Positions 22,187-24,774 of a DNA stretch of 38,260 nt are shown piece after piece. Numbering within the stretch: position 1 is the stretch's first letter; each line of letters opens with the position of its first letter. Position numbers and translations under genes: made by a program. The notes under the pieces are model-generated. The model worked only from the letters and a program-made list of their open reading frames with translations. It had not been told where the DNA came from and made no database searches. Origin of the DNA: Candidatus Kaiserbacteria bacterium (GTDB taxonomy: Bacteria; Patescibacteriota; Minisyncoccia; Phycocordibacterales; Phycocordibacteraceae); contig JAHFMT010000001.1 of the NCBI GenBank assembly GCA_023267735.1, positions 1 through 38,260 of the forward strand, read 5' to 3'.

Positions 22187-23631
22187 GAGAGGGGAGTGAA
22201 ATAGAACTGAAACCGTGTACTTACAAAGGGTTAGGGCGGGCTCCGGTCCGTCCTAGCGTGCCTATTGAAGAATGAGCCTGCGAGTTTTCTTACGCGCTTC
22301 GTCTAAGTGGCAAACCCACGGAGGCACAGCGAAAGCGAGTGTGAATAGCGCGTATCCATTTATGGAGAGCGCGTAAGAAAGACCCGAAGCTAGATGAGCT
22401 TGCCATGAGCAGGGTGAAGTTCGGCGAAAGCCGGATGGAGGCCCGAACCCGTTCGTCGTACAACGCGTTGGGATGACTTGTGGCAAGGAGTGAAAAGCTA
22501 ATCGAATCTAGTAATAGCTGGTTCTCTCCGAAACAGCTTTTGGGCTGGCGTCGTGCGTTCCCACTGGGGGTAGAGCACTGGAAGGGGTCAACAGGGAGAA
22601 ATCTCGTGACTCCTATCAACCTCCGAATACCAGTGGTCAAGAGCACGGCAGTTAGAAGGTGGGGGCGAAGCTCCATCGCTCAAAAGGGGAAGAGCCCGGA
22701 TCGCCAGTTAAGGCCCCAAAATCGATGCTCAGTACATCACAAGGAAGTGGGAATCCATTGACAGTGAGGATGTTGGCTTAGAAGCAGCCACCATTTAAAG
22801 AAAGCGTAACAGCTCACTCATCGAGGGTTCCTGCGCCGAAGATAATCGGGGTTAAGCATCGTGCCGAAACTGCGGGTGTGCACATTATTTATAATGTGTA
22901 CGCGGTAGGAGAGCGTTCCAATTGCGCTGAAGCTAAAGAGGTGACTCATAGTGGAGCGATTGGAAGTGAGAATGCAGGTACAAGTAACCACAATGCGGGT
23001 GAGAGCCCCGCACGTCGAAAGACCAAGGTTTCCTCAGCAACGGTGATCGACTGAGGGTTAGTCGGGCCTAAGGGGATGGCGAAAGCCGCACCCGATGGAC
23101 ACATGGTTAATATTCCATGACCGTTTTCTGTGCGATGGAGTGACGGGCCTTTGTATGCGTCGCCCACTATTGGATGTGGGTCAGTGCCGTGAGGAGGTGC
23201 TCTAGGTAAATCCGGAGCGCACATACTCCAAGCGGAGCCGCAACTTTCTCCTTCGGGGGAAGGGAGGACGCAAAGCAGGGCTTCGAGAAAAACTTCTAAG
23301 CTTCAGCAGAAAACGACCGTACCGTAAACCGACACAGGTGGTCAGGGCGAGTAGCCCAAGACGAACGAGTGAGGTGTCCTCAAGGAACTCGGCAAAAAAG
23401 CGGCCGTAAGTTAGCGATAAGGCCTGCCCGTAGCAATACGGGCTGCAACAAAAGATTCCCTAGCGACTGTTTACCAAAAACACAGCTCCCTGCGAACTCG
23501 TAAGAGGAAGTATAGGGGGTGACGCCTGACCGATGCCGGAAGGTCAACCATGGCTGGTATGCATAGCAATATGTATGCTGGGCTATGTAAGCCCCGGTGA
23601 ATGTCGGCGATAACTATAATCGTCCTAAGGT

Positions 23632-23820
23632 GCTGGATACAATCTTTCGGGATTGCTTCCAGCAGGACTAGGACGATTATAAGAACGTAAACAGTGTAAA
23701 TCGCCAAGTTACCTTTGTATTGAGTAATTAATACATTGTCCAATCATGGCACGAAGAGACCATACGCCATGCTCCTGAGTAATCAGGATGAAGATATGAT
23801 CCAGGTTCGAGAAATACCTG
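23632..23820 (+). mobile_element. 189-nt group I-like intron at 23S position L1931, lacking P4-P6
   Basis: Interrupts CCTAAGGT^AGCGCAATTCC and ends in G. P2, P3 (CATGGC/GCCATG), P7 (GAGACCA/TGATCC), P8 and J8/7 GAAGATA are visible. Confidence 0.85.
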
Positions 23821-24482
23821 AGCGCAATTCCTTGTCGGGTAAATTCCGACGTGCACGAATGGCGTAACGACTGGGGAACTGTCTCGAGGACTTGCTCGGT
23901 GAAAATGCGATACCGGTGAAGACGCCGGTTACCTGTGGTTAGACGAAAAGACCCTAGAAGCTTTACTGCAGCTTCGTATTGGGTCTACGGAATGTATGCG
24001 TAGCATAGTGGTGAGAGGTTGAAGTGCCGTTTTCGGGTGGCATGGACTCGTCAGTGAAATAGCCATCTTACATTTTGTAGTTCCTAACCGACGTGATGAA
24101 CCACGTCGGGACCGTGCGTGGCAGGCAGTTTTGGTGGGGCGCTATCCTCCTAAAAGGTAACGGAGGAGTCTATTAAGGTCACCTAGGCGCGAATGGAAAC
24201 CGTGCCGATAGTGTAATGGCACAAGGTGGCTTAACTGCAAGGGGTACATCCCGAGCAGATGCGAAAGCAGGGCATAGTGAACCGATGGTACGCCTTAGAC
24301 GCGGCCAGAGATTAACGGATATAAGTTACTCTAGGGATAACAGGCTAGTTCCGCCCAAGCGTCCATAGCGACGGCGGAGTTCGGCACCTCGATGTCGGCT
24401 CACCTTAGCGCGGGGCTGGAGAAGGTCCCAAGCGTTTGGCTGTTCGCCAATTAAAAAGGTACGCGAGCTGGGTTCAAACCGT

Positions 24483-24774
24483 TGAGCACCTAATACGGTG
24501 CATACTGTATTGGATGCTCAACCCGTTTGAACCCCATTGATGTTACTGTTATCGAAATAAGAAAGTTTTTTCGTCCATATAAAAGAAGAGAAGAACCAAC
24601 CAAGACACGGCGGTCTTCTGCAGGAATGCAGAAGAAACAAATCAACTAGTATCGGTAAAACCCCACGTGGGTAATACCGAGGGAAGCTTCGGCGCCCGTA
24701 GAGACTAATTGTTGATCATCGAGAACCGATGAAGTTATAGTCCGATCCCTTCAGCAATGAAGGTAAACGAAATG
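24483..24774 (+). mobile_element. 292-nt group I intron at 23S position L2593, no intact endonuclease gene
   Basis: Interrupts AAACCGT^CGTGAGACAG. IGS CACGGCGGT 24606-24614 gives the U.G pair. P2-P9 are all present, with P7 GAGACTA/TAGTCC and a terminal G. Confidence 0.93.

Follow-up and report, generated by a model that had tools for sequence, protein, structure and literature searches.

The window analysed here, a 38,260-nt stretch of Candidatus Kaiserbacteria DNA (GenBank assembly GCA_023267735.1, contig JAHFMT010000001.1, positions 1 to 38,260; genome size 0.56 Mb), carries a 23S ribosomal RNA (rRNA) gene interrupted by two introns, each of which opens with a long hairpin, hereafter the rod, in which the start of the intron folds back on the last bases of the 5' exon and the helix runs across the 5' splice site. 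The rods are conserved among relatives at both insertion sites and mark a class of introns whose guide sequence lies far downstream of the splice site, next to P2, and whose P1 helix is shortened to 4–5 bp. From the comparison of these sequences we propose, at slightly less than even odds (a probability of about 0.45), that the rod is an exon-capture clamp, an outgrowth of loop L1 in a group I intron, which would present the splice site to the ribozyme.

Results

Both introns begin with a rod that contains the 5' splice site

Intron limits were set by aligning the exons to the Rfam large-subunit model and to relatives without introns (Table 1). Intron 1 is preceded by ...CCTAAGGT and intron 2 by ...AAACCGT, and both have a U before the 5' splice site and a G as their last base. 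The site names L1931 and L2593 (below, sites 1931 and 2593) follow a presumed E. coli numbering and agree with the sites listed in PMC11270868. Ordinary group I introns at these sites are known from Thermotoga, Simkania and organelles. According to a survey of 23S genes in the Candidate Phyla Radiation (CPR), introns at both sites are catalogued in this group, where the two sites are among the frequent points of insertion (Tsurumaki et al. 2024, PMC11270868). The word 'hairpin' has no occurrence in the main text of that survey.

When the end of the exon and the start of the intron were folded together in RNAfold, a single continuous rod was predicted at each junction. Rod 1 comprises 26 bp (13 + 7 + 6) at −37.0 kcal/mol (z −8.3) and rod 2 comprises 28 bp (10 + 8 + 10) at −39.7 kcal/mol (z −7.5), with 0 of 200 shuffled sequences folding as well in either case. 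The four complementarities that an earlier note had read from this DNA are all present, and both folds agree with its description of two rods that differ in sequence and share an architecture: a single pair separates the splice site from a small internal loop in rod 1 (AGG facing GGAC), two pairs do so in rod 2 (C facing CC), and the exon U is paired with an A in each (U 23631 with A 23664 in rod 1). The note had further placed the real internal guide sequence downstream, beyond an A-rich linker; a linker of 46% A in intron 1 and 42% in intron 2 does separate the rod from a conserved guide that adjoins P2. A pairing of exon GGCGAT with intron ATCGCC (23700–23705), seen in one fold, is not kept in relatives and was dropped.

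The rods are conserved among relatives and covary

Conservation among relatives had been named beforehand as the test by which the rods could be refuted, and conserved they are. In a first sample of 60 genomes from the same genus and order, all 10 distinct introns at site 1931 have the rod, and all 26 at site 2593 have the exon complement, three of them further downstream. A wider sample combined draws across the phylum, in which 17 of 301 and 29 of 401 genomes had an insert, with a scan of one genome per species, and at least 138 distinct junctions were collected at site 1931 and at least 51 at site 2593. Automatic classing had included four ordinary introns at site 1931 and two at site 2593 among the rods; once these were taken out by eye, the rod is present in at least 59 and at least 29 distinct introns, respectively.

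The exon strand of the rod is nearly invariant, and the intron strand tracks its changes where these occur. Among the 59 rods of site 1931, the pair at exon position −12 is U-A in 17, U·G in 8 and C-G in 33, and the pair at −11 is C-G in 28, G·U in 25 and G-C in 4; at position −6 of site 2593, A-U (19 rods) alternates with G-C (10 rods). The pair at −6 of site 1931 is U·G in 37 of the 59. So many G·U pairs indicate that pairing takes place in the rRNA-sense transcript, rather than reflecting a DNA repeat. An origin at the level of DNA, as an inverted target duplication or a transposon hairpin, is not favoured, given lower stems rich in G·U and the compensatory changes; no search for a transposase was made.

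An alignment of 22 of the site-1931 introns, which we call mini-introns for reasons given below, has 90% of its cells paired under the proposed structure, as against 73% in shuffled and 36–45% in slid controls, with double changes in 34 of 55 pairs. In the upper stem of the rod, 13 of 14 pairs have changed on both sides. The length of the upper stem is highly variable, the distance between the splice site and the 3' end of the rod ranging from 39 to 242 nt. The exon U faces A in 55 of the 59 rods at site 1931 and in 25 of the 29 at site 2593, and faces G in none and three, respectively.

Rod-class and ordinary introns share a guide layout but differ in P1

At site 1931 the rod-class guide is GYU/ACCU, in which GYU pairs with AGC of the 3' exon (P10) and ACCU with AGGU of the 5' exon (P1, with U-A at the splice site). 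Its counterpart at site 2593 is CACG/GCGG, with CACG pairing with CGUG of the 3' exon and GCGG(U) with (A)CCGU of the 5' exon, here with U·G. Intron 2 accordingly has the pairings that define a group I guide, the exon U facing a guide G in P1 and the same guide reaching the 3' exon in P10, and, with one mismatch allowed, its guide CACG/GCGGT recurs in 27 of the 31 sequences that were initially assigned to the rod class. Among the 63 site-1931 sequences as first assigned, the base opposite the exon U is A in 35 and G in 17, and in 11 the guide was not found. The guide lies 26 nt downstream of the rod in intron 1 and 71 nt in intron 2, and 8–144 nt downstream across relatives.

Ordinary introns at the same two sites (at least 55 at site 1931, 21 at site 2593) have no rod. 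Their P1 is a local helix of 7 bp with U·G (GCCUUAG with CUAAGGU, or GCGUUCU with AGAACGU), closed by a loop of about 10 nt and followed directly by P2. The two classes have in common the U before the splice site, the terminal G, a guide for P1 and P10 that adjoins P2, and a P3-P7-P8 core; they differ in that the rod class has a P1 of only 4–5 bp formed by a distal guide, a rod of 20–30 bp in between and, at site 1931, no P4-P6. A conserved guide with P10 complementarity next to P2, exactly as in the ordinary class, rules out that the rod is itself the true P1, and the layout of guide and P2 common to both classes identifies the rod as an elaboration of, or an insertion into, the L1 loop. At site 1931 the clamp stops at exon position −5 and P1 covers −4 to −1; that P1 has shrunk from 7 to 4–5 bp just where the clamp takes over supports the clamp reading.

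The classes also differ in length. At site 1931, 18 of 20 rod-class introns measure 185–293 nt and at site 2593, 25 of 29 measure at most 491 nt, whereas all five ordinary introns at the former and 17 of 18 at the latter exceed 700 nt. Thirty-one rods were classed among 80 titled records: 24 carry lineage names that we take to denote CPR, four are named 'bacterium' only, and three bear Bdellovibrionales or Gammaproteobacteria labels on contigs of 2–19 kb; the ordinary introns in the same records are mostly non-CPR. The rods thus mark a subclass that is mostly ORF-less (without an open reading frame) and mostly CPR-labelled. One suggestion of the earlier note, that the hairpin creates a 5' end for leaderless translation of intron ORFs, is rejected: the longest mechanically called ORF that overlaps 23600–24800 is 90 aa, lies on the minus strand and is largely exonic, neither intron is long enough to hold a homing-endonuclease gene, and the introns with rods tend to be short, of ORF-less size.

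The same shortness bears on another use of the exon complement, in which the excised intron would recognise about 17 nt of 23S rRNA through its 13-nt complement together with the 4-nt guide, whether for site-specific reverse splicing, and with it spread or retention without an endonuclease, or to hold or inhibit ribosomes. Most introns with rods have no space for an endonuclease gene (18 of 20 at site 1931, 25 of 29 at site 2593), and few ordinary ones are so short (0 of 5 and 1 of 18, respectively); the complement moreover follows the exon variants of its host, and the recognised stretch would be longer than the 4–6 nt that reverse splicing normally uses, according to a review (PMC3984707). 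That review describes mobility by reverse splicing as being without direct experimental support. No sign of recent transfer was seen, no comparison of intron with host phylogeny having been made, and the upper stem and the U-A pair would be superfluous for targeting, so that we regard this extended guide as decidedly unlikely.

A third site has the clamp, mostly without burial of the splice site

A third insertion site, equivalent to the junction between 24148 and 24149 of the window, is occupied by five distinct introns in relatives (L002, L003, L004, L005 and L026). All five have an exon clamp (GGGGCGC/GCGCCC) and a distal guide (GGGGGA) ahead of P2, and in four the splice site lies in a single-stranded hairpin loop. 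The element common to the three sites is therefore the clamp and not the burial of the splice site, and the existence of a clamp-only form lends support to the clamp reading. At the other insertion sites found in relatives (window-equivalent 23617/23619, 24338, 24389, 24393, 24423 and 24838), P1 is a short hairpin of the ordinary kind.

The recurrence also bears on whether the rod needs a function at all. It might be an insertion into L1 that happened to be complementary to the exon and persists as a neutral by-product, and the guide and P2 layout common to both classes does give it the look of an insertion. Against this, rods are seen at three independent sites, their pairing has survived many double changes, and they have tracked variants of the exon, all of which makes a functionless rod highly improbable.

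Intron 1 belongs to a family of mini-introns without P4-P6

According to the earlier note, intron 1 has lost the U·G wobble and P4-P6. Both points stand for this genome: the 5' strands of P3 and P7 are separated by only 7 nt, which leaves no P4-P6, and P1 has U-A. P4-P6 is likewise missing from all 22 aligned members, in which about 10 alignment columns separate the two strands, and all 22 have U-A in place of the wobble. The family, with at least 59 distinct rod-class members, consists of introns of about 180–300 nt with a rod, P2, a P3/P7/P8 core and a terminal hairpin. P7 is 87% paired in the alignment, with an invariant G-C pair, and a terminal G is present in 38 of 43 complete members.

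Intron 1 itself has the P3/P7/P8 pseudoknot core and the terminal G expected of a group I intron. In J8/7 and P7 its sequence is similar to intron 2 and to the Rfam consensus, and on this likeness we file it as group I-derived, short of full membership. Rfam gave no match to intron 1 at E ≤ 10, nor to the mini-intron of the relative L080 at E ≤ 1; in all, two mini-introns and one ordinary site-1931 intron were scanned. Intron 2 is matched by the Intron_gpI model over the full length of the model (24549–24764, 36.5 bits, E 6e-8), with a score short of the gathering score of 50. The implication is that surveys of CPR rRNA insertions based on Rfam may leave mini-introns, which escape the model, unclassified.

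The receptor for the U·G wobble lies in J4/5, and the mini-introns of site 1931 have presumably lost it together with P4-P6. Such a loss would better explain why A and G vary opposite the exon U, since any pair would then suffice.

We record three further observations on this family. First, in L080 an Rfam-positive group I intron (1022–1306, minus strand, 65.9 bits) lies about 10–20 nt downstream of the site-1931 mini-intron, so that the two are tandem introns around a very short exon. Second, a conserved GUAAACAG or GUGAACAG stands just 3' of the site-1931 rod (23687–23693; columns 91–97 of alignment A1). Lastly, the loop of P2 is a conserved G(U/C)AA, and a CC:GG step is invariant in the clamp. 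By the general rules for tetraloops and their receptors, the conserved motif, the P2 loop and the CC:GG step could be docking candidates.

P1 is predicted to form while most of the rod stays in place

That the hairpin and P1 are mutually exclusive, as the earlier note had it, is overstated. The two do overlap, by one to four central pairs, but P1 does not exclude the rod as a whole. Of the 59 relatives at site 1931, only 9 have exon position −4 in a rod pair, 1 has −3 and 9 have −2, and in at least 50 the bases AGG are free; the internal loop displays the P1 strand, and the U-A pair alone has to switch. Opening exon positions −4 to −1 costs a median of 2.2 kcal/mol at this site (2.7 in the window) and 9.0 kcal/mol at site 2593 (7.4 in the window), where the rod mostly pairs −4 and −2 and P1 must therefore displace part of it at a higher price. 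The P1 duplexes themselves have energies of −2.5 to −5.3 kcal/mol, the penalty for bimolecular initiation included. The switch is thus confined to the central part of the rod and leaves clamp and upper hairpin intact, and P1 together with the rod would make a pseudoknot-like junction.

The size of this exchange also bears on a different role, in which the rod would be an off-state or timer, blocking the 5' splice site until the ribozyme and the 3' exon have been made or until some cellular event opens it. The rod is complete about 50 nt into each intron and would therefore form first, it overlaps P1, and at site 2593 its displacement is costly. The pair at the exon U, being U-A and not U·G in nearly all rods, would in addition keep the rod from serving as a substrate helix. 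There is little to time at site 1931, however, where the P1 strand is already free in most relatives and the exchange is cheap, and four of the five third-site clamps leave the splice site in a loop. We consider a timer unlikely as the chief role of the rod; in the form given by the earlier note, as a timer that unfolds rRNA helices until the ribozyme is made, it overlaps with the clamp reading and may hold.

The helix that crosses the splice site invites a third reading, also raised in the earlier note, by which a cut of the RNase III type would leave the 3'-OH on the exon and the ribozyme would only ligate the exons. In its chemistry the scheme is coherent. Cuts by RNase III do yield a 3'-OH, and the wobble is a requirement of the first splicing step rather than of the second. 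An RNase III substrate is a duplex of about two helical turns, a length that both rods have, with an internal loop beside the splice site; the genome encodes an RNase III (PF14622, 144 bits); and intron 1 combines U-A in P1 with the absence of P4-P6. The family at site 2593, however, retains a U·G P1, P10 and an apparently complete core, and 17 of the 52 guides found at site 1931 still have G facing the exon U. The upper stem varies widely in length, the third-site splice site is single-stranded in four of five introns, and a stray cut in the exon strand would destroy what is apparently the sole 23S gene. Nuclease-assisted splicing is therefore very doubtful as a general scheme. A hybrid confined to site 1931, in which the geometry of the rod would set the site, a host RNase III-like enzyme would make the first cut and the P3-P9 ribozyme would join the exons, seems to us from the sequences more doubtful still.

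Introns are scarce in metatranscriptome contigs

We compared the gene with contigs from four groundwater metatranscriptome runs of one study, material that does not resolve RNA ends. Contigs identical to variable parts of this 23S reach depths of about 500–1000. Intron 1 has no cover in any of the four runs, and intron 2 is covered by one contig at a depth of 3.8, against about 500–640 for organism-specific exon sequence in the same run. The low cover is consistent with mature rRNA from which the introns have been removed, a feature known of CPR. Exon joints 23631 to 23821 and 24482 to 24775 were seen, with sides shorter than 30 nt and a likeness of 93%; as these may come from other, intron-free organisms, we do not take them as proof of splicing. 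The single intron 2 contig (run X1, 24483–24661) begins exactly at the first base of the intron, with three unmatched letters ahead of it, and this is possibly where the free intron has its 5' end. In three runs, contigs skip 66 nt at 24852–24917, near the 3' end of the 23S; these are probably from other organisms that lack the expansion present here.

Host gene and features of the introns

The rRNA genes of the window do not keep the usual linked order: the 23S and 5S genes (21594–25273) are followed by about 8 kb of other DNA and only then by the 16S gene with a tRNA gene (33262–35060), the 16S thus lying downstream. In domain I the 23S gene has an extra stretch of 54 nt relative to the Rfam model (window about 21900–21960, near model position 228). 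The features of the introns are collected in Table 1.

Table 1. The 23S rRNA gene of the window, its two introns and their structural elements (window coordinates)
Feature	Position	Strand	Basis
23S rRNA gene, host of both introns	21594–25069	+	Rfam LSU_rRNA_bacteria, 2338 bits
Intron 1: 189 nt, site L1931, group I-derived mini-intron without P4-P6, terminal G at 23820	23632–23820	+	Exon alignment; alignment of relatives
Rod 1 lower stem, exon strand (exon −17 to −5)	23615–23627	+	Predicted fold; paired with intron in 52–59 of 59 relatives
Rod 1 internal loop, exon AGG (5' strand of P1) facing GGAC 23665–23668	23628–23630	+	Predicted fold
Rod 1 upper part: 23631–23637/23658–23664 (7 bp) and apical hairpin 23640–23645/23650–23655	23631–23664	+	Predicted fold; covariation
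Rod 1 lower stem, intron strand (exon complement)	23669–23681	+	Predicted fold; follows exon variants at −12 and −11
Guide of intron 1: GTT with 3' exon AGC (P10), ACCT with exon AGGT (P1, U-A)	23708–23714	+	Invariant, 100% paired in 22 of 22 aligned relatives
P2 of intron 1, GTAA loop	23716–23735	+	8 of 8 pairs covary
P3 of intron 1 (23745–23750/23766–23771), enclosing P7 5' strand (23758–23764)	23745–23771	+	5 of 6 P3 pairs covary
P8 of intron 1 (23774–23778/23783–23787, GTAA loop), J8/7 and P7 3' strand (23795–23801)	23774–23801	+	5 of 6 P8 pairs covary; J8/7-P7 likeness to Rfam group I consensus
Terminal hairpin of intron 1, closing on the last intron G	23802–23820	+	Sequence; covaries by eye, uncounted
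Intron 2: 292 nt, site L2593, group I intron with probable full core	24483–24774	+	Rfam Intron_gpI match
Rod 2: 24470–24479/24525–24534, 24481–24488/24515–24522, 24490–24499/24504–24513; splice site after 24482	24470–24534	+	Predicted fold; exon −13 to −5 paired in 29 of 29 relatives
Guide of intron 2: CACG with 3' exon CGTG (P10), GCGGT with exon ACCGT (P1, U·G)	24606–24614	+	Sequence; relatives
P2 of intron 2, GGAA loop, immediately 3' of guide	24615–24634	+	Predicted fold

Discussion

The comparison of two intron classes at the same sites, the coexistence of P1 with most of the rod, the mini-intron family of site 1931 and the third site are the new elements of this work. For the clamp reading we postulate the following sequence of events. 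Once about 50 nt past the splice site have been transcribed, a segment of the intron would pair with the last 13 or so bases of the exon to form the lower stem, and the variable hairpin of the intron, the upper stem, would stack onto it. The clamp would thereby keep the exon out of its native rRNA helices, namely the 3' strand of helix 69 at site 1931, and the peptidyl-transferase ring with the 5' strand of helix 93 at site 2593; it would tether the 5' exon to the intron during both splicing steps, and it would supply the binding energy that a P1 of 4 bp is missing. With the short P1 strand positioned at the internal loop or junction, the downstream guide would need to take only the last four or five exon bases, exchanging one to four pairs locally, upon which clamp, upper hairpin and P1 would form a junction and the usual group I chemistry could follow. 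A parallel may be drawn, by analogy, with the introns of phage T4, for which it has been proposed that the translating ribosome masks upstream parts of the exon that would otherwise compete with productive folding (PMC3984707); rRNA introns have no translating ribosome, and the clamp could play a comparable part.

Several observations weigh against this reading or are neutral to it. The rod classes are defined by the rod itself, and the counts therefore describe the class and do not test it. At site 2593 the rod pairs exon positions −4 and −2 in 28 of 29 relatives each, and −3 in 13 of 29, so that P1 has to displace part of the rod. Nearly every rod of sites 1931 and 2593 continues as a helix past the splice site, and this suits an off-state or a double-strand nuclease site equally well. 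A pure clamp has no need of the bias for A over G opposite the exon U; this bias and the stacking fit an off-state or a gate on the first step, and a timer component beside the clamp is plausible. In one relative (L053) the rod agrees with the host exon at −4 and the guide does not. Lastly, the alignment shows no variation in P1 and P10 of the mini-intron, for which covariation therefore offers no support.

Known systems resemble the rods in part. In Tetrahymena pre-rRNA, Woodson and co-workers reportedly described an alternative pairing, P(−1), that holds the last bases of the 5' exon in a helix competing with P1. That helix is short and joins two segments of the exon; the rods do not fit this description, as their partner strand lies in the intron (23669–23681 and 24525–24534), and at 13 bp plus a stacked hairpin they are mostly compatible with P1. 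Engineered trans-splicing group I ribozymes are closer in layout, since their extended guides consist, like the rods, of an antisense duplex, an internal loop and a short helix in the P1 region, and raise substrate binding and efficiency (PMC6155759). The engineered antisense strand, placed 5' of the guide, differs in that its target in the substrate is on the 3' side of the splice site, whereas the rods pair with the 5' exon, in cis, and would do so in a pseudoknot-like junction.

The intervening sequences that RNase III removes from 23S rRNA are likewise long hairpins within the 23S gene that are absent from the mature rRNA. They sit at helix tips (23IS2 and 23IS4 in PMC11270868) and leave a fragmented rRNA; the introns described here interrupt the conserved core and have group I cores and guides. 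For the loss of P4-P6 the nearest case is an engineered one: Ikawa, Shiraishi and Inoue are said to have obtained, in 2000, weak activity from a minimal P3-P9 domain of the Tetrahymena intron without P4-P6. That construct was a laboratory deletion, whereas intron 1 represents a natural family that always has the exon rod. A full-text literature search, most subscription journals lying outside its scope, turned up neither an account of the rods nor one of a naturally occurring group I intron that lacks P4-P6.

In the textbook group I intron, the 5' splice site is held in a short local P1 with a U·G wobble that docks against P4-P6. The introns described here depart from this picture twice, in a widespread natural class that has a guide far downstream and a long exon-gripping helix instead, and in one family of that class that has dispensed with P4-P6 and often with the wobble. 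If these introns are self-splicing, the rod would amount to a new means, found in nature, by which a splice site is held and selected, and the mini-intron, a natural ribozyme core of about 120 nt plus a rod, would be minimal and useful for ribozyme engineering. If a host factor is needed, it would connect the removal of introns with ribosome biogenesis in a new manner, in bacteria with an apparently single rRNA operon. And should hybrid splicing turn out to be true, these bacteria would have a splicing pathway that is started by protein and finished by RNA.

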